Assembly: GCA_044464175.1 (NCBI GenBank)
Contig: JBIQLO010000001.1
Location: forward strand, 1-62,412
Direction of reading: 5' to 3'
Length of the DNA stretch: 62,412 nucleotides
Source: Planctomycetaceae bacterium
GTDB taxonomy: Bacteria > Planctomycetota > Phycisphaerae > Tepidisphaerales > Tepidisphaeraceae
Made by a program: the position numbers and the translations under genes. Of this stretch, positions 5,191-37,673 are shown one piece after another. The first letter of the stretch is position 1; the number at the start of each line of letters is the position of its first letter. The notes beneath the pieces were generated by a model, which saw only the letters and a program-made list of their open reading frames with translations, ran no database searches and had not been told where the DNA came from.

Positions 5191-6357
5191 ATGCGCATTG
5201 TCCTGTTTTACCATTCCCTGATTTCCGACTGGAACCACGGCAATGCCCATTTCCTGCGCGGGATCGCCTCGGAACTGCTGCACCGGGGCCATGACGTGCG
5301 TCTATTCGAACCGCGCAACGGCTGGAGCGCGGTCAACCAGCGGGCCGAAGCCAACGGAACAGCCCTCAAGGGATTTCGGGCGGCATATCCGAATTTGAAA
5401 AGCACTTCCTATCACCTGCCCACGCTCGATCCGGACCTGGCGTTGCAGGAGGCGGACCTGGTGATCGTGCATGAGTGGAATGAGCCGGAACTGGTGCGGC
5501 GAATCGGGGAGCACCGCGCGACCCGAGGGGGGTATCGTCTGCTGTTTCACGACACCCACCATCGCGCGGTCACCGATCCATCGGCCATGGGCGGGTACGA
5601 CCTGCGGCACTATGACGGCGTGCTGGCCTTTGGGGGGGTGCTGCGGGAGATTTATCTCAGGAACGGCTGGACACGCCGGGCGTGGGTGTGGCACGAGGCG
5701 GCCGACACGCGGGTGTTTCGCCCCATTGTCGATCAGCCGACTGAAGGGGACCTGGTCTGGATCGGCAACTGGGGGGATGGGGAACGGTCGGAGGAATTGA
5801 TGCGGTTTCTGCTGCGCCCCATCGCAGCGCTGAAGCTCGGGGCGCGGATTCATGGCGTGCGCTATCCGGCCGAGGCGCGGGCGGCGCTGGCCGAGGCGGG
5901 GGTGGAATATGGCGGCTGGCTGCCCAACTACCGGGCCCCGGAGGTGTTTGCCCGGTTCAAGTTCACGGTGCATGTGCCGCGCCGACCGTATGCACGCGCG
6001 CTGCCGGGGATTCCCACTATCCGCGTCTTTGAGGCGCTCGCCTGCGGCACGCCGCTGGTCTGCGCGCCGTGGGAGGATGCCGAGCACCTGTTCACGCCGG
6101 GAGAGGATTACCTGGTGGCGCGGGATGGTGCGGAGATGAAGGCGCATATGCGCCTGTTGCTCAAGGACCGCGCCTTCAGCCGACAGCTGGCCGCGCATGG
6201 CCACCATACGATCCTGTCGCGTCATACCTGCGCGCATCGGGTGGATGAATTGATGAACGTGGTCGATGAGCTGCGACAGGCCAAACCGGCCCCCGGGCGA
6301 CGGGCCGGGAAGCGCGGGACTCCGTCGCGAGCCGCCGTCAACGGGAGATCAAGATGA
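5191..6357 (+). CDS. CgeB-family glycosyltransferase-like protein (module 1)
   Basis: Clear similarity to both halves of the next ORF: N-terminal IVLFYHSLISDWNHGNAHFLRG and C-terminal RVFEALACGTPLV...SRHTCAHR. ATG at 5191 is preferred over the TTG at 5185. Confidence 0.7.
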   Translation: MRIVLFYHSLISDWNHGNAHFLRGIASELLHRGHDVRLFEPRNGWSAVNQRAEANGTALKGFRAAYPNLKSTSYHLPTLDPDLALQEADLVIVHEWNEPELVRRIGEHRATRGGYRLLFHDTHHRAVTDPSAMGGYDLRHYDGVLAFGGVLREIYLRNGWTRRAWVWHEAADTRVFRPIVDQPTEGDLVWIGNWGDGERSEELMRFLLRPIAALKLGARIHGVRYPAEARAALAEAGVEYGGWLPNYRAPEVFARFKFTVHVPRRPYARALPGIPTIRVFEALACGTPLVCAPWEDAEHLFTPGEDYLVARDGAEMKAHMRLLLKDRAFSRQLAAHGHHTILSRHTCAHRVDELMNVVDELRQAKPAPGRRAGKRGTPSRAAVNGRSR

Positions 6358-8576
6358 ACCACAAACCCACCATTGCCTTCTTCGGCTCCAGCCTTGTCTC
6401 GGCCTACTGGAACGGGGCGGCCACTTACTACCGGGGCCTGGTTCGCGCGCTGCACGCCCGCGGCTATCGCGTCACGTTCTATGAGCCTGATGCCTACGAA
6501 CGGCAACAGCATCGGGACATGCCCGACCCGCCCTGGGCGCGGGTGGTGGTCTATTCAGCCCAGGGCACCGATGCGCTTGAGGCGTGCCTTCAGGAAGCCG
6601 CCGGTGCCGATCTGATCGTCAAGGCCAGTGGCGTGGGGGTTTTTGACGAGCTGCTTGAAGCGCGGGTTCCGGCCCTGCGGCGATCGGGCAATTTGGTGGC
6701 CTTCTGGGATGTGGATGCCCCGGCCACGCTGGAACGGCTTCGGCGGAACCCGCAGGACCCGTTTCATCCCCTGATTCCGCGGTATGACCTGATTTTCACA
6801 TATGGCGGCGGGCAGCCGGTGATCTCGGCGTACGAACAACTGGGGGCGCGGCGATGCGTGCCGATTTACAACGCCCTGGACCCGCAAACGCATCATCCGG
6901 TCCCGCCCGAGCCGCGCTTTGAGGCGGACCTGGGATTTCTGGGCAACCGCCTGCCGGACCGGGAGGCGCGGGTGGAGGCGTTCTTCATTCAGGCCGCGGC
7001 GATGCTGCCCCAGCGGCAGTTTCTGCTGGGGGGAAGCGGATGGGAGGACAAGCCGCTGCCGCCCAACATCCGCCGCCTGGGGCACGTGCCGACGGCCGAC
7101 CACAACGCCTTTAACTGCACGCCCAGGGCGGTGCTGAACATCAGCCGCCAAAGCATGGCCGATTTTGGCTTCTCGCCGGCCACGCGCGTCTTTGAGGCCG
7201 CCGGCGCGGCCGCCTGCCTCATTACCGATGATTTTCCGGGCATTGACGAATTCTTTGAACCGGAGACGGAGATTCTCGTGGCGCGGGATGGGGCGGATGT
7301 CGCACGGCAGCTTGAGGCGCTGACGCCTGCAAAAGCGACCGCCATCGGGCAGGCCGCGTGCCGGCGGGTTCTGGCTGATCATACCTATGCCCAGCGGGCG
7401 GTGCGATTTGAGGAGGCAATCGGGGCCGATCCCGGAAGTGGGATTTCGGGTGCCGGGATTCGGGATTCTCACTCCAATCCGAATCCCGGCACCCAAAACC
7501 CGAAATCCGAGTCCCTCAACATCGTCATTCTCGGCCTGTCCATCACCTCTTCATGGGGAAACGGACACGCTACGACCTATCGGGGCCTGGTGCGCGAGCT
7601 GAGCCGCCGGGGACATCAGGTTTTGTTTCTTGAGCGGGATAAGCCCTGGTATGCGAACAACCGCGATCTACCCCACCCCCCTTTTGGGCGCACGGCATTG
7701 TATAAGACGGTGGAGGACCTGAAGCGGCGATTTGCGGCCGAGGTCCGGCAGGCGGACCTGGTGATCGTCGGCTCGTATGTGCCCCAGGGCGTGGCCGTTG
7801 GGCAATGGGTGATCCAGACCGCGCGGGGGCTGCCGGCATTTTATGACATCGACACGCCGGTCACGCTGGCGAAGCTGGAGCGGGGCGATGAGGAATACCT
7901 GTCGCGGGCCCTGGTGCCGCGCTACCGGCTGTACCTCTCCTTCACCGGCGGGCCGACGCTGGAGCGGCTGGAAAGGGAATTCGGGTCCCCCGCCGCCCGG
8001 GCGCTCTATTGCGCGGTGGACCCGGAATCGTATTACCCGCAGGAGTCGGCCAAAATCTGGGAACTGGGGTACCTGGGCACCTACAGCCCCGACAGGCAGC
8101 CCGCGCTGGAGCAGTTTTTGATGGGAACGGCGCGCCGGCGTCCCGCCGGGCGGTTTGTGGTGGCGGGCTCGCAGTATCCCTCGGAGATCGACTGGCCGCC
8201 CAACGTACAGCGCATCGAGCATCTGAACCCATCGGAACACCGGGCCTTCTACAACCAGCAGGATTTGACGCTCAACCTGACTCGCTCGGACATGCGTCGG
8301 GCCGGCTACTGCCCCAGCGTGCGCCTGTTTGAGGCGGCCGCCTGCGGGGTGCCGATCCTGACTGACCGGTGGGAGGGGCTGGATGAGTTCTTCACACCCA
8401 ATGAGGAAATCTGCGTCATCGGCAACACGGAGGAGGCGTTGCGGCTGATGGAGCAGCGCCAATCCAAGGCGATGCGCCTGCTGGGACAGGCCGCGCGGCA
8501 TCGGGTGCTGTCGCGGCACACGGCGGCCCATCGGGCGGCCGAATTGGAAACCATCGTACATGAGCTGAATCAATGA
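6354..8576 (+). CDS. Tandem di-domain CgeB-family glycosyltransferase-like protein (modules 2 and 3 fused)
   Basis: Residues 1 to ~360 and ~385 to 740 are paralogous: FFGSSLVSAYWNGAATYYRGL versus ILGLSITSSWGNGHATTYRGL, and RVFEAAGAAACLITD versus RLFEAAACGVPILTD. ATGA overlaps at both ends (6354 and 8573). Confidence 0.7.
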   Translation: MNHKPTIAFFGSSLVSAYWNGAATYYRGLVRALHARGYRVTFYEPDAYERQQHRDMPDPPWARVVVYSAQGTDALEACLQEAAGADLIVKASGVGVFDELLEARVPALRRSGNLVAFWDVDAPATLERLRRNPQDPFHPLIPRYDLIFTYGGGQPVISAYEQLGARRCVPIYNALDPQTHHPVPPEPRFEADLGFLGNRLPDREARVEAFFIQAAAMLPQRQFLLGGSGWEDKPLPPNIRRLGHVPTADHNAFNCTPRAVLNISRQSMADFGFSPATRVFEAAGAAACLITDDFPGIDEFFEPETEILVARDGADVARQLEALTPAKATAIGQAACRRVLADHTYAQRAVRFEEAIGADPGSGISGAGIRDSHSNPNPGTQNPKSESLNIVILGLSITSSWGNGHATTYRGLVRELSRRGHQVLFLERDKPWYANNRDLPHPPFGRTALYKTVEDLKRRFAAEVRQADLVIVGSYVPQGVAVGQWVIQTARGLPAFYDIDTPVTLAKLERGDEEYLSRALVPRYRLYLSFTGGPTLERLEREFGSPAARALYCAVDPESYYPQESAKIWELGYLGTYSPDRQPALEQFLMGTARRRPAGRFVVAGSQYPSEIDWPPNVQRIEHLNPSEHRAFYNQQDLTLNLTRSDMRRAGYCPSVRLFEAAACGVPILTDRWEGLDEFFTPNEEICVIGNTEEALRLMEQRQSKAMRLLGQAARHRVLSRHTAAHRAAELETIVHELNQ
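7441..7508. repeat. CGGGATT-heptamer hairpin lying inside the CDS at the junction of the two CgeB modules
   Basis: Arms are GGATTTCGGGTGCCGGGATTCGGGATT and AATCCGAATCCCGGCACCCAAAACCCGAAATCC. They pair as 10 bp plus 13 bp blocks with one bulge. The element is translated as GISGAGIRDSHSNPNPGTQNPKS. Confidence 0.85.
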
Positions 8577-9422: not shown

Positions 9423-10157
9423 ATGATTCGTCTGACGCGGCATGGATTTCGGGAGATGCTCATCGGGTCGCTGGTGCTGATTGCGGTGGGCGTGGTGGTG
9501 GGTTATGCGCTCTGGTGGCCGCTGTCGCTGCTGGTGATTCCGGTGCTGGTGTGGCTGTTCGCGTTCTTCCGCGATCCCGAGCGGCTGGTGCCGGCGGTGC
9601 AGCACGCGATGGTCAGTCCGGCCGACGGCGTGGTCTCGGACATCACGGACATTCCGCATGACGAGCTGTTGGGCGGCCCGGCGGTGCGGGTGGGGATTTT
9701 CCTGTCCGTCTTCAACGTCCATATCAACCGCAGCCCATGCGACGGGCGGGTGATCGCCACCAACTACAAGCCGGGGAAGTTCATCAATGCGATGAAGCAC
9801 GACCAGGCGTCCAGCGAGAATGAGTCGAACACGGTGGTGCTGGCCGAACCGCACGGCGAGCGTCCCATCGCGGTGGTGAAGCAGATTGTCGGGCTGATTG
9901 CCCGGCGGATCGTCTGCACGGTAAGCAACGGCGATATCGTGGAGCGGGGGCAGCGGATCGGCATGATCAAATTCGGCAGCCGGACGGAACTGAGCATTCC
10001 GAAGTGGATGGGGCCAAAAATTCAGGTGAAGATCGGGCAGCCGGTGCGCGGGGCGGCGGACATCATCGCCCTGCTGGAGCAGGGTGTGCACACGGAGACG
10101 CCGGCCGCCGGGACGGATGAATTTGAGCCGATCGTAGGACGGGAAAGCCCGGCGTGA
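9423..10157 (+). CDS. psd: Phosphatidylserine decarboxylase (short form)
   Basis: FNVHINRSPCDGRV core and an FGSRTE self-cleavage (G-S) region. N-terminal membrane helices. Confidence 0.9.
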   Translation: MIRLTRHGFREMLIGSLVLIAVGVVVGYALWWPLSLLVIPVLVWLFAFFRDPERLVPAVQHAMVSPADGVVSDITDIPHDELLGGPAVRVGIFLSVFNVHINRSPCDGRVIATNYKPGKFINAMKHDQASSENESNTVVLAEPHGERPIAVVKQIVGLIARRIVCTVSNGDIVERGQRIGMIKFGSRTELSIPKWMGPKIQVKIGQPVRGAADIIALLEQGVHTETPAAGTDEFEPIVGRESPA

Positions 10158-10165
10158 ACATGGAC

Positions 10166-10194
10166 AATGGAAAATGGAAAATGAAAAATGGAAA
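10166..10194. repeat. Left arm of a perfect 29-bp inverted repeat (GGAAAAT heptamers)
   Basis: AATGGAAAATGGAAAATGAAAAATGGAAA is the exact reverse complement of 10583-10611. Confidence 0.95.
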
Positions 10195-10560
10195 TCAGGC
10201 GCGGCGGCGAGCGGTGACAATGGCTCGTCCGAGCATGCGGGCGATTTCCGAGGTTTCCCGGCGGACATCGGCGATGCGGGGTTCCTGAACCAACCTGGTT
10301 TCCACAATCAGCCGCAACCAATAAAGGGTTTCTCTCGCTTCCTTCAATGCGATGAGGTATTTGGCGACGAAATCAGCTTTGCTCTGAGCGGCCTGCCCTT
10401 CCTCGATATTTGCGCCGATGGAAGTTCCGGCGCGCAGCAACTGACTGGCGAGGGTGCGCGGCGTTCCAGGCTGGCGGTCCAAAAAGCGACAAAGATGAAC
10501 AATCCGGACCGCCAATCCGAAAGACCGGTCGGGAATGCTGGAAGATGTGGGAGTAATCAT
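10195..10560 (-). CDS. Four-helix-bundle protein (23S rRNA intervening-sequence protein family)
   Basis: 122 aa counted from the ATG at 10560. The motif LLRAGTSIGANIEEGQAAQSKADFVAKYLIALKEARETLYWLRL is characteristic of this family. The longer ORF-track start runs into the repeat arm. Confidence 0.85.
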   Translation of the reverse strand: MITPTSSSIPDRSFGLAVRIVHLCRFLDRQPGTPRTLASQLLRAGTSIGANIEEGQAAQSKADFVAKYLIALKEARETLYWLRLIVETRLVQEPRIADVRRETSEIARMLGRAIVTARRRA

Positions 10561-10582
10561 TCCTTCATCATGGCCCTTCCAT

Positions 10583-10611
10583 TTTCCATTTTTCATTTTC
10601 CATTTTCCATT
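10583..10611. repeat. Right arm of the perfect 29-bp inverted repeat
   Basis: TTTCCATTTTTCATTTTCCATTTTCCATT. Ends 4 nt before the pssA ATG. Confidence 0.95.
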
Positions 10612-10615
10612 TGAC

Positions 10616-11518
10616 ATGCCTCCCCTTCCCTCCAACTCCGTCCATCATCTGCATCGCCGCCAGCGGCGGCGGTGGCGCCGGCGGCGGGCGTATATCCGCT
10701 CGGTCTACTTTCTGCCCAGCCTGGCGACCCTGGGCAATGCGATCTGCGGGTTCGCGGCCATTTATGTGGCAGCATTGGATCCGTCGCTGCCCAGCGCCGA
10801 CTGGCTGACGGCGCGCTTCGCCGAGCACCGATTCACGGTGGCGGCCTATCTGATCTTCTTCGCCATGGTCTTTGACGCCCTGGACGGGCGGCTGGCGCGG
10901 TTTGCCCGGCATACGACCGATTTCGGCGGGCAGCTGGACAGCTTGGCGGATGTGCTGAGCTTTGGGGCGGCGCCGGCGTTTCTGGCGCTGCAGGCGTTTA
11001 AGGCGGGGTACCCGGATGTGCCGACGATCCTGTCGCGGCTGATCTGGGCGGTCGGGGCGCTGTTCATGAGCTGTGCGGCCATGCGCCTGGCGCGGTTCAA
11101 TGTCAGCAATGAGCATGGGGAACAGCACCACTTCAGCTTCCTGGGGCTGCCCAGCCCCGGGGCGGGGGCGGCCGTGGCATCGCTGGTGCTACTGGAACAA
11201 TATCTGCAGAACCACGGCCTGGCGTGGCTGTCGGCAATGTGCCTGTGGCTGCTGCCGCCGGTGGTGCTGGGAGCGGGGCTGCTGATGGTCAGCGCGGTGC
11301 GGTATCCGCACATGGTGAACCGGTATCTTCGGGGCAAGCGCTCAATCGCGCGGCTGGTGGCCGTGCTGGTGATCGCGCTGCTGTTCGTGGTGGCGCATCA
11401 GGTGACGCTGGCGATCGGCGCGCTGGGGTATGCGGCGTACGGGCCTGCATTGTGGCTGCTGGCGCGATGGCGCAAGAGCGGGGCGGGCGAGATGCCACAC
11501 ACCCAGCCGAATTCCTAG
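10616..11518 (+). CDS. pssA: CDP-diacylglycerol--serine O-phosphatidyltransferase
   Basis: CDP-alcohol phosphatidyltransferase motif DGRLAR...G...DSLAD. Multiple TM helices. ATG at 10616; the upstream ORF-track extension is repeat-encoded. Confidence 0.9.
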   Translation: MPPLPSNSVHHLHRRQRRRWRRRRAYIRSVYFLPSLATLGNAICGFAAIYVAALDPSLPSADWLTARFAEHRFTVAAYLIFFAMVFDALDGRLARFARHTTDFGGQLDSLADVLSFGAAPAFLALQAFKAGYPDVPTILSRLIWAVGALFMSCAAMRLARFNVSNEHGEQHHFSFLGLPSPGAGAAVASLVLLEQYLQNHGLAWLSAMCLWLLPPVVLGAGLLMVSAVRYPHMVNRYLRGKRSIARLVAVLVIALLFVVAHQVTLAIGALGYAAYGPALWLLARWRKSGAGEMPHTQPNS

Positions 11519-11659
11519 ATTGCAGATGAATCTCCAGGCGCCACGAGGCAGCGGACGGGCTGATTCCGGCAGTGGCATGCCGTGGGCTATGCGTCCTGGC
11601 ATGCCAGAACTCGCAACCCCCCTCTCCACCCTTGCACTGCGCCACCACGCCTAAACAAC

Positions 11660-11698
11660 AAAGGCATGATGGATTGCTCCATCATGCCTTTGGATTTT
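11660..11698. terminator. Bidirectional intrinsic terminator between pssA and fusA
   Basis: AAAGGCATGATGG / CCATCATGCCTTT 13-bp stem with a 6-nt loop. A-rich on the left and T-rich (GGATTTT) on the right. Confidence 0.6.
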
Positions 11699-14515: not shown

Positions 14516-14594
14516 CATGGCCGGCCCGCGGCGCGCCTCTTTCGGCCTCGTGGCGGACGCCTCAGAAGAAAGCCGGCCTCGGCCCATTACCAAA

Positions 14595-14675
14595 GTTGCC
14601 AGTTTCCAGTTCGTAGGGTGGGCTTTAGCCCACCACCGCTGACTGGTGGTAAAGCCCACCCTACGAACTGGCAAC
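14595..14675. repeat. Long composite hairpin in the rpsO-pnp leader (CCAGTT outer arms plus GTAGGGTGGGCTTTA core)
   Basis: AGTTCGTAGGGTGGGCTTTA pairs perfectly (20 bp) with TAAAGCCCACCCTACGAACT. An inner CCACCA/TGGTGG stem and outer GTTGCCAG/CTGGCAAC also pair. Confidence 0.9.
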
Positions 14676-14730
14676 TGACAACTCCCTGTCGGGCCGATTC
14701 CCCCCTTGAGGCTGCTGAAGGATATTGTCT

Positions 14731-25690: not shown

Positions 25691-27319
25691 AGTGATCGCG
25701 GTCGAAGGATGCACCTCCAAGGCCGCCACCCGAATCCCGGAACCCGAATCCCGGCTGTCGACCACCGACTGCTGAATCGGGCGCAGGATATCCTGCACCG
25801 GCTTGAGGATCGGCGAGAGGACGCCGTTGGGCAGCACGCCCAGCAGCACTACCGCCAACGCCAGCGGCACCAGAATCGCCACTTCGCGCCCGTTCAGGTC
25901 GGGTTTGGGCCCGGCGTGGTGGGCATGGCCCGGCTCGCCGTGATCGGCGGTCGGGTGCTTCAGCGGGCCGAAGATCACCCGGGCGACCATGTGCAGCATG
26001 TAGAGCGCGCCCAGGATCACGCCCAGCGCCCCCAGCACGCCAAAGCCGATGCCCAGGTGGGGCGAGGTGAACGCCCCCAGGAGCGTCAGAAATTCGCTGA
26101 CAAACCCGTTCAATCCCGGCAGGCCGATGCTGGAGAGGGCAAACAGTACGAAGAAGAAGGCCAGCTTGGGCATGACCCGCGCCAGGCCGGAAAGCTCATG
26201 GATGTCGCGGGTGTGGTAGCGCTCGTAGATCATCCCGATCACAAGGAACATCGCCCCGGTGCTCAGGCCGTGGTTGATCATGTAGAGGACCGATCCCTGC
26301 TGTCCGATTTCGTTCAGGGCGAACAGCCCCAGCACGCAAAAGCCCAGGTGGGAAACCGAGGAGTAGGCGACCAGCTTCTTGATGTCCTGTTGCACCCACG
26401 CCACCAGGGCAGCGTAGATGATCCCGATGACGCACACGATGCCGATCCACTTGACCAGCAGCGGGAAGGAGACGCCCGTGGCGGTGATCAGGCCGATGGG
26501 AATCGCCAGGCGGAACAGCCCGTAGGTCCCCAGCTTCAGCAACACGCCGGCCAGGATCACGCTGCCGGCGGTCGGGGCCTCGGTGTGCGCCAGTGGCAGC
26601 CAGGTATGGACCGGGAACAGCGGCACCTTCACGGCGAAACCGGACAGGAAGCCGAGAATCACCCACCAGCGCTCGCTGTGGGTGAGGGCAGGGATGCCGG
26701 GGAGGCCGTGCTGCGCCCCGGCCACGATGGTGGCGATGTCGAAGGTGTTGTACTTCAGGCCCAGGTAGATCGCCGTGGCCAGCGTCAGCATGGAGCCGGT
26801 AAAGGTGAAAATGAAGAACTTGATCGCCGCGTAATTCCGCTCCGGACCGCCCCAGACGCCGATCAGGAAGAACATCGGGATCAGGGTCAGCTCGAAGAAG
26901 ATGTAGAACATCAGCAGGTCGGCGGCCACGAAAACGCCGAGCATGGTGAACGCCATGCCCAGCATCCAGGCGTAATACTCCTGCTGGCGCTGCTGGATGT
27001 AGCTGAAGCTGCCGGCCACGGAGATCGGCATCAGCACGACCGTGAGCATCATCAGCCACATGCTCACCGCGTCGGCCGACAGATGGAAGCTGAATCCGAT
27101 GCCCGGCACCTGCAGCGAGGAGAGGCTCCAGTCAAGGGTCGCCCCGGGCGTGAGCCAGGGGAACTGAAGCACCATCGCCAGCCCGACCAGCGCCGTCAGC
27201 AGACTGACAAACAGGGACCAGGTCTGGGCGGCCCTGGTCTGGCGGATGAACGCCGCCACGATCGTCCCCACCAGAGGGACGGCCAGAAGAAGCGGAAGCC
27301 AGATGCTGTGTACGATCAT
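25673..27319 (-). CDS. nuoM: NADH-quinone oxidoreductase subunit M, with a repeat-encoded C-terminal tail
   Basis: Antiporter-like subunit. The final ~30 aa (VVDSRDSGSGIRVAALEVHPSTAITLATGN) are encoded by heptamer repeats. Confidence 0.9.
   Translation of the reverse strand: MIVHSIWLPLLLAVPLVGTIVAAFIRQTRAAQTWSLFVSLLTALVGLAMVLQFPWLTPGATLDWSLSSLQVPGIGFSFHLSADAVSMWLMMLTVVLMPISVAGSFSYIQQRQQEYYAWMLGMAFTMLGVFVAADLLMFYIFFELTLIPMFFLIGVWGGPERNYAAIKFFIFTFTGSMLTLATAIYLGLKYNTFDIATIVAGAQHGLPGIPALTHSERWWVILGFLSGFAVKVPLFPVHTWLPLAHTEAPTAGSVILAGVLLKLGTYGLFRLAIPIGLITATGVSFPLLVKWIGIVCVIGIIYAALVAWVQQDIKKLVAYSSVSHLGFCVLGLFALNEIGQQGSVLYMINHGLSTGAMFLVIGMIYERYHTRDIHELSGLARVMPKLAFFFVLFALSSIGLPGLNGFVSEFLTLLGAFTSPHLGIGFGVLGALGVILGALYMLHMVARVIFGPLKHPTADHGEPGHAHHAGPKPDLNGREVAILVPLALAVVLLGVLPNGVLSPILKPVQDILRPIQQSVVDSRDSGSGIRVAALEVHPSTAITLATGN
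25729..25754. repeat. CCCGAAT/CCCGGAA tandem heptamers inside the nuoM 3' end
   Basis: CCCGAATCCCGGAACCCGAATCCCGG. Same unit (complement of CGGGATT) as 7441-7508 and 40818-40836. Confidence 0.8.
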
Positions 27320-27321
27320 GT

Positions 27322-27405
27322 TATTTGTTATGTGTTATTGGCAATTCGTTATTGGCCATTTGCGAAGGACAAACCAACCAGTAACAAACAACCAGCAACA
27401 AAAAT
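27322..27405. repeat. AT-richer imperfect hairpin with ~7-nt periodic arms in the nuoM/nuoL spacer
   Basis: The left arm GTTATTGGCAATTCGTTATTGG opposes the right arm CCAACCAGTAACAAACAACCAGCAAC. Fills the 92-nt spacer. Confidence 0.55.
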
Positions 27406-29625: not shown

Positions 29626-29700
29626 TCGTTGTCCGTTGTCCGTTGTCCGCTGCCCGGTGTCCGATTTGCTTCCTCGGACCACGGTCCACAGACAACGATC
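29626..29700. repeat. CGTTGTC/GTCCGTG-family hairpin in the nuoL/nuoK spacer
   Basis: Three tandem CGTTGTC units at 29627-29647 are opposed by TCGGACCACGGTCCACAGACAACGA. The outer 8 bp TCGTTGTC/GACAACGA pair perfectly. Confidence 0.8.
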
Positions 29701-29701
29701 C

Positions 29702-30019
29702 TTACCCTTTCAAATCCCGCCACGCGTCGGCGTCCAGCGTGTGCCGCTGCCGGAACAGGAGCACCACCAGGCCCAGGGCCAGCGAGGCCTCGGCCGCCGC
29801 GATCACCAGCACGAAGATCGTGAACGCCTGCCCGGCGAAGTTGTTGTGGTAGCGTGAAAAAGCCACCAGAGACAGCGCCACGCCCTGGAACATCAGCTCC
29901 GTGCACAGAAACAGCACGATCATGTTCCGACGCGTCATGAAGCCGATCAGCCCGATCACAAACAGGATCGCGCCCACCGCCAGATAATGCTGCAATGCCA
30001 AAAGGCTCAGTTGGTTCAT
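29702..30019 (-). CDS. nuoK: NADH-quinone oxidoreductase subunit K
   Basis: About 105 aa with three TM helices. MNQLSLLALQHYLAVGAILFVIGLIGF. ATG at 30019. Confidence 0.9.
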   Translation of the reverse strand: MNQLSLLALQHYLAVGAILFVIGLIGFMTRRNMIVLFLCTELMFQGVALSLVAFSRYHNNFAGQAFTIFVLVIAAAEASLALGLVVLLFRQRHTLDADAWRDLKG

Positions 30020-30027
30020 TCGTCCAT

Positions 30028-30098
30028 CGTGGTTCGTGGTCCGTGGTCCGTGGTCCGAAAGAGTGAATCGGACCACGGACAACGGACGACGGACCACG
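30028..30098. repeat. GTCCGTG-heptamer hairpin in the nuoK/nuoJ spacer
   Basis: CGTGGTTCGTGGTCCGTGGTCCGTGGTCCGA, then a 9-nt loop, then TCGGACCACGGACAACGGACGACGGACCACG. The arms are 31 nt with about 4 mismatches. Confidence 0.9.
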
Positions 30099-34914: not shown

Positions 34915-34968
34915 GTAGGGTGGGCTTTAGCCCACCAGGAACGGCCGGTGGGCTAAAGCCCACCCTAC
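34915..34968. repeat. Perfect 22-bp hairpin GTAGGGTGGGCTTTAGCCCACC in the fliF/fliG spacer
   Basis: Arms at 34915-34936 and 34947-34968 are exact reverse complements. Same core as 14611-14668. Confidence 0.95.
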
Positions 34969-36740: not shown

Positions 36741-36808
36741 ATCGTTGTCCGTGGTCCGTTGTCCGAGCAGAAACCACGGACCACGGACAACGGACAACGG
36801 ACAACGAT
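36741..36808. repeat. CGTTGTC/GTCCGTG-family hairpin in the fliE/fliF spacer
   Basis: ATCGTTGTCCGTGGTCCGTTGTCCG is opposed by CGGACCACGGACAACGGACAACGGACAACGAT. The register can slip by whole heptamers. Confidence 0.85.
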
Positions 36809-37113
36809 CAAATCGGCATATTCTTAATCTCCTCGTACGCATCCATCAGCTTGGAGCGGATCGCCAGGAGGGTCTTGAAGGCCAGGTCCGACTTCTCCAC
36901 CGCCGTCATCACCCCGGTCACGTTCTCCGTCTTGCCCGCCACCAGGTCCTCCACGGCCGCCGAGGCATCCTGCTGCATCTTCGACACCTCGTCGATGCTC
37001 TTTTTCAGCGCATCGGCAAAGCTCGCCCCCCCGCCGCCGGCCGCCCCCCCCGCCGCCGGCATCGACCCGCCGATCTTCCCGATCCCGAGATTGTTGGTGG
37101 AAATTGGATTCAT
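36808..37113 (-). CDS. fliE: Flagellar hook-basal body complex protein FliE
   Basis: 101 aa from the ATG at 37113. The FADALKKSIDEVSKMQQDA...AVEKSDLAFKTLLAIRSKLMDAYEEI sequence is typical of FliE. Confidence 0.85.
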   Translation of the reverse strand: MNPISTNNLGIGKIGGSMPAAGGAAGGGGASFADALKKSIDEVSKMQQDASAAVEDLVAGKTENVTGVMTAVEKSDLAFKTLLAIRSKLMDAYEEIKNMPI

Positions 37114-37115
37114 GT

Positions 37116-37190
37116 TCGTTGTCCGGGGTCCATCGGCCGTGGTCCATGATGATCCCTCTGGGACCATGGACAACGGATCACGGACCACGA
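37116..37190. repeat. Degenerate GTCCGTG-family hairpin in the flgC/fliE spacer
   Basis: TCGTTGTCCGGGGTCCATCGGCCGTGGTCC versus GGACCATGGACAACGGATCACGGACCACGA. About 22 of 30 positions are complementary. Confidence 0.65.
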
Positions 37191-37192
37191 TT

Positions 37193-37588
37193 TCATGCGA
37201 TCAACCTCAGCGCCGAGTTCAGCATCGCCTTGCTCGTCTCCATCATCGTCACATTCGCCTCATACGCCCGGGACGCCTCCATGGCGTTGACATATTCGGT
37301 CGGCAGATTGATGTTGGGATAGCGCACATATCCGTTCTTGTCCGCATCCGGATTCCCCGGCTCATACCGTTTCTGGAAAGGCGAATGGTCGATCTTCACC
37401 TCGGCCCGCACGCCCGCCTTGCCGTTGGCCTGCCCCGCCGCAAAAACCGTGAACCGGCGCCGATAGGGGATTTTTTCCCCTTTGGCGTTCCGCGTCGTGT
37501 TCAGGTTCATGATATTGGCCGCGATCGTGTCCATCCGCGCCCGCTGGGCCTCCAGCCCGCTGGCGCCCATATCCAGTATGTCAAACAT
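37193..37588 (-). CDS. flgC: Flagellar basal-body rod protein FlgC
   Basis: MFDILDMGASGLEAQRARMDTIAANIMNLNTTR and a C-terminal SNVTMMETSKAMLNSALRL-type rod motif. ATG at 37588. Confidence 0.9.
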   Translation of the reverse strand: MFDILDMGASGLEAQRARMDTIAANIMNLNTTRNAKGEKIPYRRRFTVFAAGQANGKAGVRAEVKIDHSPFQKRYEPGNPDADKNGYVRYPNINLPTEYVNAMEASRAYEANVTMMETSKAMLNSALRLIA

Positions 37589-37608
37589 CAGACCTCCATG
37601 TCTTTCAT

Positions 37609-37670
37609 CGTAGTCCGTGGTCCGTGGTCCGATTCCCCTTCGGATCACGGACCACGGACTACGGACCACG
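37609..37670. repeat. GTCCGTG-heptamer hairpin in the flgB/flgC spacer
   Basis: CGTAGTCCGTGGTCCGTG pairs perfectly (18 bp) with CACGGACCACGGACTACG. There is also an inner TCCGA/TCGGA stem. Confidence 0.9.
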
Positions 37671-37673
37671 GGT

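Follow-up and report, generated by a model that had tools for sequence, protein, structure and literature searches.

The first 62,412 nucleotides of contig JBIQLO010000001.1 from a Planctomycetaceae bacterium (assembly GCA_044464175.1), a stretch that we call the window, carry the genes psd and pssA, separated by an insert made of two arms of tandem heptamers, each the reverse complement of the other, that enclose a gene of the S23p family of four-helix-bundle proteins, the family also encoded in some intervening sequences (IVSs) of 23S rRNA. In all likelihood this insert is an inserted member of a class of heptamer-armed four-helix-bundle cassettes, and a heptamer-armed build characterises the protein family as a whole. 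The coordinates of the features are gathered in Table 1.

The longest perfect inverted repeat of the window (loop of 600 nt at most) is the pair 10166-10194 (AATGGAAAATGGAAAATGAAAAATGGAAA) and 10583-10611, 29 nt that are exact reverse complements, as an earlier note on this DNA had stated, while the longest such repeat in 30 first-order Markov simulations of the window was 12-16 nt. Period 7 was called for left and right arm alike by Tandem Repeats Finder (TRF). The complementarity, previously described as continuing imperfectly outward, extends over 36 nt (10159-10194 and 10583-10618) at 92%, with three mismatches, and the right array has one extra inner heptamer (10576-10582) that is left unpaired. 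The spacing given in that note was likewise correct: the first base of the perfect core is the ninth nucleotide past the psd stop and its last base lies 4 nt before the pssA ATG, while the extended arms begin 1 nt past the stop and take in the ATG, the start codon of pssA being the outermost 3 nt of the right arm. Given the positions of this stop and this start, the arms thus reach from one edge of the interval to the other. Their unit ATGGAAA is found nowhere else in the window; ATGGAAAATGGAAA, with at most two mismatches allowed, has nine matches in the 62 kb, all within the two arms, for 0.35 expected. The composition of the insert is foreign, with a G+C content (GC) of 24% in the arms, and at third codon positions (GC3) 0.64 in the enclosed open reading frame (ORF) as against 0.845 in psd and pssA.

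Table 1. Features of the psd-pssA locus, gene-less heptamer hairpins of the window, and hairpins at the psd-pssA junction of relatives
Feature	Position	Strand	Description
psd (phosphatidylserine decarboxylase)	9423..10157	+	244 aa; PF02666, E 1.9e-39; upstream host gene, stop 10155-10157
Inserted psd-pssA interval	10158..10615		458 nt; foreign composition
Left arm	10159..10194		about five heptamers: ATGGACA, ATGGAAA, ATGGAAA, ATGAAAA, ATGGAAA; purine-rich; perfect core 10166-10194
Four-helix-bundle gene (S23p / 23S_rRNA_IVP / TIGR02436)	10195..10560	-	121 aa plus stop; likely start ATG 10558-10560
Leader, right arm to ORF start	10561..10582	-	in-frame ATGs run on into the arm
Right arm	10583..10618		reverse complement of the left arm; pyrimidine-rich; perfect core 10583-10611
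pssA (CDP-diacylglycerol-serine O-phosphatidyltransferase)	10616..11518	+	300 aa; PF01066; downstream host gene, ATG 10616-10618
Gene-less heptamer hairpins, nuo spacers M/L, L/K, K/J	27319-27402, 29627-29699, 30026-30098		minus-strand operon
Gene-less heptamer hairpins, fliF/fliE, fliE/flgC, flgC/next gene	36741-36808, 37113-37190, 37609-37671		minus-strand operon
psd-pssA hairpins of relatives L099 and L113			(GGATGAA)n-loop-(TTCATCC)n
psd-pssA hairpin of relative L136			GAATCGA-type units
psd-pssA hairpin of relative L145			degenerate

The minus-strand gene is the only substantial content between the arms, as had been claimed. Its product, of 121 residues, matches PF05635 (E 5.8e-23, 81.6 bits for a curated cut-off of 33.8 bits) and TIGR02436 (E 2.1e-27, 95.5 bits for a cut-off of 24 bits), and these are the only families that Pfam and NCBIfam returned for the insert. 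The stop codon (10195-10197) abuts the left arm with 0 nt in between. The public gene call, of 133 aa, starts 12 codons earlier, inside the right arm, and this arm-encoded N-terminal extension is modelled as disordered by AlphaFold2. The AlphaFold2 monomer model of the product is a four-helix bundle with a predicted local distance difference test score (pLDDT) of 89.5, and its matches in Foldseek are 2RLD, 2GSC and Avd (4DWL), with template modelling (TM) scores of 0.94, 0.83 and 0.82; each of these solved relatives has five chains, and 2GSC has been described as a homopentamer. No other four-helix-bundle gene is present in the window. Neither a transposase nor a recombinase is found in or next to the cassette, where the four-helix-bundle gene is the sole ORF; no defence model was called by PADLOC and no family by Rfam anywhere in the window, and phages gave only two weak hits.

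The homologues of PssA place the organism among Phycisphaerae/Tepidisphaeraceae-like Planctomycetota. In the closest relative (89% PssA identity) the order psd-pssA-fusA is kept, with ORFs of 244 and 300 aa, and the gap between psd and pssA is 9 nt; it is 39 nt, without heptamers, in a relative at 78%, and in those at 73-74% stop and start overlap in an ATGA (4 nt), as they also do in most of about 70 further loci (59-71% identity), the scan of metagenomes having yielded relatives at 71% identity or less only. The presence of the insert is sporadic, the junction being empty in the closest relatives, and the 458-nt interval is an insertion into an ancestrally overlapping or near-overlapping junction. 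We infer the exact boundaries of the insertion from the 9-nt gap of the 89% relative, over which the net gain is 449 nt, to be compared with the 446 nt covered by the perfect arms and what lies between them. In four relatives (L099, L113, L136 and L145) the gap contains a gene-less heptamer hairpin, and the empty, hairpin-only and loaded junctions that had been proposed as a check all exist among relatives.

Two further loci show other occupants of the same gap. One (L141, 1340-1375) has a solo T-rich heptamer array, TTTTGAC ATTTGAC TTTTGAC, the unit of which matches the imperfect outermost unit of the right arm in the window (CATTTGACATG). The other (L150, 542-1413) has an insert of about 870 nt coding for a HicA/HicB-like toxin-antitoxin pair and, because such a module is found there, the psd-pssA junction seems open to the landing of selfish elements of different kinds.

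It had been predicted that four-helix-bundle genes in general would be bracketed by heptamer inverted repeats, and this holds across phyla. With an alignment of homologues, 80 loci were retrieved in reference genomes of Cyanobacteria, Acidobacteriota, Planctomycetota, Verrucomicrobiota, Bacillota, Bacteroidota, Chloroflexota, Nitrospirota and others, and the same geometry, shifted within the same loci, served as a control for inverted repeats. The best inverted repeat bracketing the ORF had a mean score of 17.7, against 7.9 in the control, and it exceeded the 99th percentile of the control at 53 of the 80 loci, while autocorrelation at lag 7 was present in 56-63% of the flanks, as against 0-2% for the other lags from 3 to 12 or for the control regions. 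Where clear arrays lie on both sides (49 cassettes), the median arm is 33-35 nt long (about five units), the median distance from the stop codon to the 3' arm is 3 nt and the median span 477 nt, and the unit, common to both arms of a cassette, differs between cassettes. Purines prevail in the 5' arm (52 of 61 cases) and pyrimidines in the 3' arm (50 of 64). Within this class, with its spans of about 410-580 nt, the window copy is typical: its two arms have the same unit, AAAATGG (distance 0), the 3' arm follows the stop codon with 0 nt in between, the cassette spans 462 nt, and the purine fraction is 0.81 in the 5' arm and 0.22 in the 3' arm. The arms are not an artefact of assembly, because they are also seen in finished Nostoc plasmids.

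The cassette, with its arms, behaves as a unit. In Nostoc, cassettes that encode 80-90% identical proteins lie in unrelated contexts and their homology is limited to arm-ORF-arm, which is thus what has been duplicated from one genomic context to another. The earlier proposal of a mobile or templated class of elements devoid of transposase fits these data, in that the homology of paralogues ends at the arms and a transposase is absent. When the proteins are at least 70% identical the unit is shared, and below 70% it bears no relation to the protein; the number of units differs between orthologous cassettes, and one orthologous pair, at hemY-hemB, shows the same alteration of the unit in both arms. 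Whether variant units follow a mirrored order in the two arms was examined by a permutation test, which was underpowered and returned a combined p of 0.18. The ORF is under purifying selection (ratio of nonsynonymous to synonymous substitution rates, dN/dS, of about 0.05-0.14), and the protein is therefore functional. The flanks of the cassettes also contain gene-less arrays (31 in about 154 kb), and such nearby arrays carry the unit of the local cassette in 55% of cases, for 7.5% expected.

Two observations made in Nostoc may be set beside these. Identical copies of the gene on three plasmids of Nostoc flagelliforme were considered as a means to define the boundary of the element, and rejected, as they lie in a larger duplicated backbone. 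In another pair of Nostoc loci (L032 and L036), the four-helix-bundle ORF is 97.5% identical while an alignment of about 1.1 kb, covering upstream flank and cassette, is only 78.5% identical, and this suggests a recent exchange or homogenisation of the cassette.

Neighbour orientation was counted with start-trimmed ORFs, a crude procedure that still leaves high-GC loci, the window included, partly mis-called; with this reading, 29 of 44 cassettes are in sense orientation between two co-oriented genes, and co-orientation prevails with the upstream (37:10) as with the downstream neighbour (35:9), each with p of about 1e-4. The median gaps between arm and neighbour are 3 and 6.5 nt. The hosts are diverse, and include pairs of ABC transporter genes, lepA and a radical SAM gene, a type III restriction-modification mod-res pair, hemY-hemB, asd, and the junction upstream of dnaE. 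Typically, then, a cassette is a passenger that looks promoter-less and sits in an intercistronic gap. That of the window is in such a gap as well but, antisense to both neighbours, belongs to a minority arrangement (about 4 of 44).

How a host may live with such a passenger is a matter of interpretation. The best explanation overall, which we consider probable, is that of an IVS-type cassette placed at an mRNA operon junction, with arms that loop out and a transcript that is resolved by RNase III. RNase III needs about 20 bp of duplex, and the 29-bp perfect stem exceeds that. In a transcript crossing both arms, these would pair over 29-36 bp (the arm duplex alone is predicted at about -43 kcal/mol), looping out the insert and bringing the psd stop next to the pssA start; the duplex would then be a substrate of RNase III, as in 23S IVSs, and cleavage would leave psd and pssA on mRNAs of their own. 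The long-range arm stem is present in the minimum free energy (MFE) and centroid structures of the plus strand, and in this MFE structure the region of the psd stop is paired with the pssA ATG. Looping out followed by cutting would take the harm out of an insertion, whether this lies in an rRNA helix or at an operon junction, and would therefore explain where cassettes occur. In Coxiella, RNase III does cut within the heptamer stem of the IVS (PMC4990558). Taken by itself, the resolution of a psd-pssA cotranscript by RNase III after looping out is a tentative step, to which our analysis gives a little less credit than to its absence. As for the cassette, it is best read as a selfish passenger and not as a regulator of lipid synthesis.

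Several facts weigh against this picture. At the level of RNA, the model takes for granted that psd and pssA are cotranscribed through the insert; in the plus-strand ensemble the long stem has a probability of only about 0.3, and the arm stem is not in the minus-strand MFE structure. Mismatches between arms, 35 of the G:T type for 32 of the A:C type, display no G:U bias, and thus give no indication, for either orientation, that an RNA stem is under selection. The gene itself is antisense to psd and pssA, whereas rRNA IVSs and most cassettes are sense, so that host transcription cannot express it, and a promoter and terminator scan of the region gave no convincing promoter for its own strand. 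With regard to mobility, the closest homologue of the protein has an identity of only 64% and ATGGAAA arms are not known from any second copy, hence there is no direct sign of a recent move; a search for target-site duplications in the 49 cassettes found none, the longest direct word shared just outside the arms being 3.67, against 3.68 in the mismatched-pair control. Finally, about a quarter to a third of the members of the family are without clear arms.

Two signals around the locus may be recorded here. The left arm includes a sigma-70-like match on the plus strand (10161-10189: TGGACA, a 17-nt spacer, AAAAAT) that points inward to pssA; the promoter scan finds such a site no commoner than chance for the region and, were it real, it would yield a pssA transcript without the left arm. 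Between the convergent pssA and fusA, positions 11659-11692 form a 15-bp hairpin with T-runs on both strands, which looks like a bidirectional terminator and thereby implies that the psd-pssA transcript ends there.

The arms might act instead as DNA, a possibility that we regard as real if not the probable one. They would provide hairpin or cruciform single-stranded DNA, or ends made of repeated binding sites, for recombination or for a copying process linked to replication; the RNA stem would be incidental, and the insertion history would be compatible with it, only the purpose of the arms being different. Several traits look in that direction: the homology of paralogous cassettes ends at the arms, the lack of wobble bias leaves the two strands equivalent, cassettes are found in both orientations, orthologues vary in the number of units as slippage-prone DNA does, the arms of a cassette change in concert, as expected of template switching within quasipalindromes, an established mechanism, and the RNA stem is predicted with a modest probability only. 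But no recombinase or transposase is found in or next to the cassette and target-site duplication was not seen; moreover, the strong sense bias and the placement at operon junctions point to dependence on host transcription, and in the one case studied the stem is a site of RNA processing (PMC4990558).

It is doubtful that the heptamer arrays are binding sites for the protein that the cassette encodes, the presumed pentameric ring of which would hold either an array of about five units or the stem between the arms, perhaps for autoregulation, protection of the mRNA or assembly of a ribonucleoprotein, in the way Avd sits on the stem-loop of diversity-generating retroelements (DGRs). The figure five recurs, in the chains of the closest structures (2RLD, 2GSC and Avd) and in the median number of units per arm, and the Avd pentamer contacts an RNA stem-loop through all five protomers (bioRxiv 10.1101/2023.10.23.563531); proteins at least 70% identical share their unit, the gene-less arrays nearby carry that of the cassette well above expectation (55% vs 7.5%), and the ORF is under strong purifying selection. 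Yet unit and protein are uncorrelated below 70% identity, common descent explains the shared units, and the arms range from 3 to more than 9 units. The Coxiella protein appears not to be made (PMC4990558).

The earlier note had also envisaged that cutting would uncouple psd and pssA, or stabilise their mRNAs differentially, and an adaptive regulator of phosphatidylethanolamine synthesis must be weighed as well. The exact position at the stop/start junction with both ORFs intact, the sequestering of the pssA ATG by the stem in the MFE structure and the other heptamer hairpins that relatives have at this junction would suit it. A role specific to phosphatidylethanolamine is nevertheless unlikely, and we deem the regulator improbable: the closest relatives, with adjacent or overlapping genes, are without the insert, the same type of cassette is found in unrelated operons (ABC transporters, lepA, mod-res, hemY-hemB, asd, dnaE), and the HicAB-like module of L150 makes the junction look like a permissive site, not a regulated node. 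That the arms should be functionless by-products of heptamer slippage and quasipalindrome correction, associated with the gene by historical accident, is very improbable: heptameric repeats are known to be in excess quite generally (PMC4692102), copy number varies, wobble bias is absent and the test of mirrored variant order was not significant, but about two thirds of the genes of one family, in many phyla, have inverted unit-matched arrays on both sides, with a 3' array that abuts the stop codon and a consistent polarity, for 0-2% in control regions of the same loci.

Other heptamer hairpins exist in the window, and the cassette had been presented as their gene-loaded version. Those of the nuo and flagellar operons fill whole intercistronic spacers, with units CGTGGTC/CGTTGTC paired with GGACCAC/GGACAAC, and the five from nuoL/K to flgC have predicted RNA energies of -28 to -57 kcal/mol on either strand. 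They have in common with the cassette period-7 inverted arrays in intercistronic gaps, but their units are different and the polarity of their arms is opposite, and the cassette is therefore not simply a loaded copy of them. The idea stands for the class, as the hairpin-only elements found at psd-pssA in relatives have the polarity of the cassette, and fails for the hairpins of the window.

A few side observations belong with these hairpins. In 29627-30098 and 36741-37671, the genes nuoK, fliE and flgC (101-131 aa) are each bracketed by a purine-rich then a pyrimidine-rich arm, like the four-helix-bundle gene; the arms around nuoK (29627-29699 and 30026-30098) are 73% complementary over 73 nt, and local hairpins and gene-spanning stems would be alternative pairings. 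A GGGATTC/GAATCCC heptamer hairpin (7433-7515) lies in frame between two Glyco_trans_1_2 modules of ORF 6354-8576 (740 aa), which looks like two paralogous cistrons fused through the hairpin, with a unit of the Xanthomonas GGGAATC type. The hairpins 14594-14683 and 34915-34968 share a non-heptamer palindromic core, GTAGGGTGGGCTTTAGCCCACC, similar to a repetitive extragenic palindromic (REP)-type element, the first being flanked by AGTTGCC-type heptamers.

Among known systems, integron gene cassettes are, like the armed cassettes, compact single-gene units, apparently promoter-less, usually co-oriented with and directly downstream of another gene. The armed cassettes are without integrase, attI or attC, have two inverted arms that bracket the gene instead of one recombination site, and are scattered singly in ordinary operons. 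REP elements with their associated tyrosine transposases (RAYTs), which form REPtrons, and miniature transposable elements with inverted repeats (MITEs) together with their parent elements resemble the cassette in that a small gene lies between inverted short repeats, the repeat being also dispersed without a gene, as hairpin-forming extragenic elements in operon spacers. They differ from it in the protein, a 120-aa helical bundle without nuclease or transposase motifs in the cassette, and REP/RAYT differs further in its Y1 (HUH) transposase and its palindromes tagged with GTAG/CGTC in place of tandem heptamer arms. The marks of an insertion sequence or a MITE, that is, a transposase and a target-site duplication, are lacking in the cassette.

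DGRs come close by their accessory protein. Avd has the same fold as the ORF product (TM about 0.8) and is a pentameric relative; it binds structured RNA, and the flanks of the DGR template form a long-range duplex that encloses it (bioRxiv 10.1101/2023.10.23.563531). Sequence identity between Avd and the ORF product is about 14%, and heptamer arms are not a described feature of DGRs. No reverse transcriptase lies beside the gene, the neighbours of which are psd and pssA (with a glycosyltransferase gene, a 262-aa ORF and fusA within about 3 kb of the cassette), the rest of the 62 kb not having been scanned for one, and scans for inverted and tandem repeats gave no template/variable repeat pair, dispersed direct repeats having been checked within 9900-10900 only.

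The arms themselves are reminiscent of the bacterial heptanucleotide repeats, namely the short tandemly repeated repetitive (STRR) sequences of cyanobacteria, GGGAATC of Xanthomonas, GGGGATT of Nostoc, TAACTGA of Beggiatoaceae, and GGACCGG and the paired MTYCTGA of Geobacter. These too have a period of 7 and from 2 to 6 or more units, are mostly intergenic, often between the genes of an operon, frequently come as convergent pairs able to form a hairpin, and vary in length among close relatives (PMC4692102, PMC4679880, PMC2700814). The difference is that those papers link none of them to a gene family, whereas the arrays of the cassettes bracket one specific gene with matched units. In Geobacter metallireducens, the 'class 3 global regulator binding sites' are made of five tandem MTYCTGA heptamers (PMC2700814, Figure S5, Table S4) and occur between the genes of operons, of which moaA-mosC is an example, as pairs on opposite strands with about 100 nt from one to the other (PMC2700814); these pairs look like the gene-less heptamer hairpin type.

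One may be tempted to go further, and to see in the TIGR02436/S23p pentamers the protein partners of the bacterial heptanucleotide repeats, armed cassettes and the gene-less heptamer hairpins and arrays dispersed in the same genomes making up one system without a transposase. We hold this for unlikely, but its consequences would be wide. Such a system would be akin to RAYT/REP, or have an Avd-like grip on structured RNA; it would colonise operon junctions and rRNA helices because the closing stem lets the host transcript shed the insert, and it would explain together the origin of ORF-bearing rRNA IVSs, the function of a large family and the excess of heptameric repeats.

Some of this was already known: the ORF-bearing rRNA IVSs, the heptamers of the Coxiella IVS and the homology with Avd (PMC10053308), as well as the unexplained heptamer repeat families of Xanthomonas, Nostoc, Beggiatoaceae and Geobacter. 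We found no description of a family-wide heptamer-armed cassette in the literature searched, which leaves subscription journals largely uncovered, so that an earlier description is possible; nor, in the same incompletely covered literature, did we find one of cassettes residing in mRNA operon junctions or of their three-state polymorphism. On the practical side, the arms lead gene callers to place ORF starts within repeats and can fuse neighbouring cistrons. Whether the protein binds its own repeats, whether RNase III resolves operon transcripts at such inserts and how a gene is copied without transposase have become questions that can be put to the test.

The nearest counterpart of the cassette is the ORF-bearing 23S IVS of Leptospira, Coxiella burnetii, Xanthomonas and Brucella, and the parallel drawn in the earlier note was apt. 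Both encode an S23p/PF05635 protein. The Coxiella IVS is 428 nt long and contains an S23p ORF; its terminal stem is of 28 bp, and two or three GACAGAT heptamers stand where RNase III cuts (PMC4990558). It is of the same size class as the window cassette (462 nt) and evidently of the same construction. Terminal inverted repeats, a stem of about 28 bp with tandem heptamers of strain-variable copy number, sporadic presence or absence and a GC below that of the host are shared as well (PMC4990558). The differences lie in the setting: the IVS resides in an rRNA gene and the cassette between the protein-coding psd and pssA, the Coxiella ORF is sense to the host transcript and that of the window antisense, and processing by RNase III, a fact for the IVS, is only predicted for the cassette. 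The S23p/IVS four-helix-bundle family is large (more than 7,000 database clusters in one search) and without known function, the only mechanistic role known for the fold being that of its distant relative Avd; heptameric tandem repeats are over-represented in bacterial genomes without explanation (PMC4692102), and for more than 30 years the origin of rRNA IVSs has been an open question. The locus and the survey bring these three matters together, and we may then understand the rRNA IVS as a special case of a general cassette.

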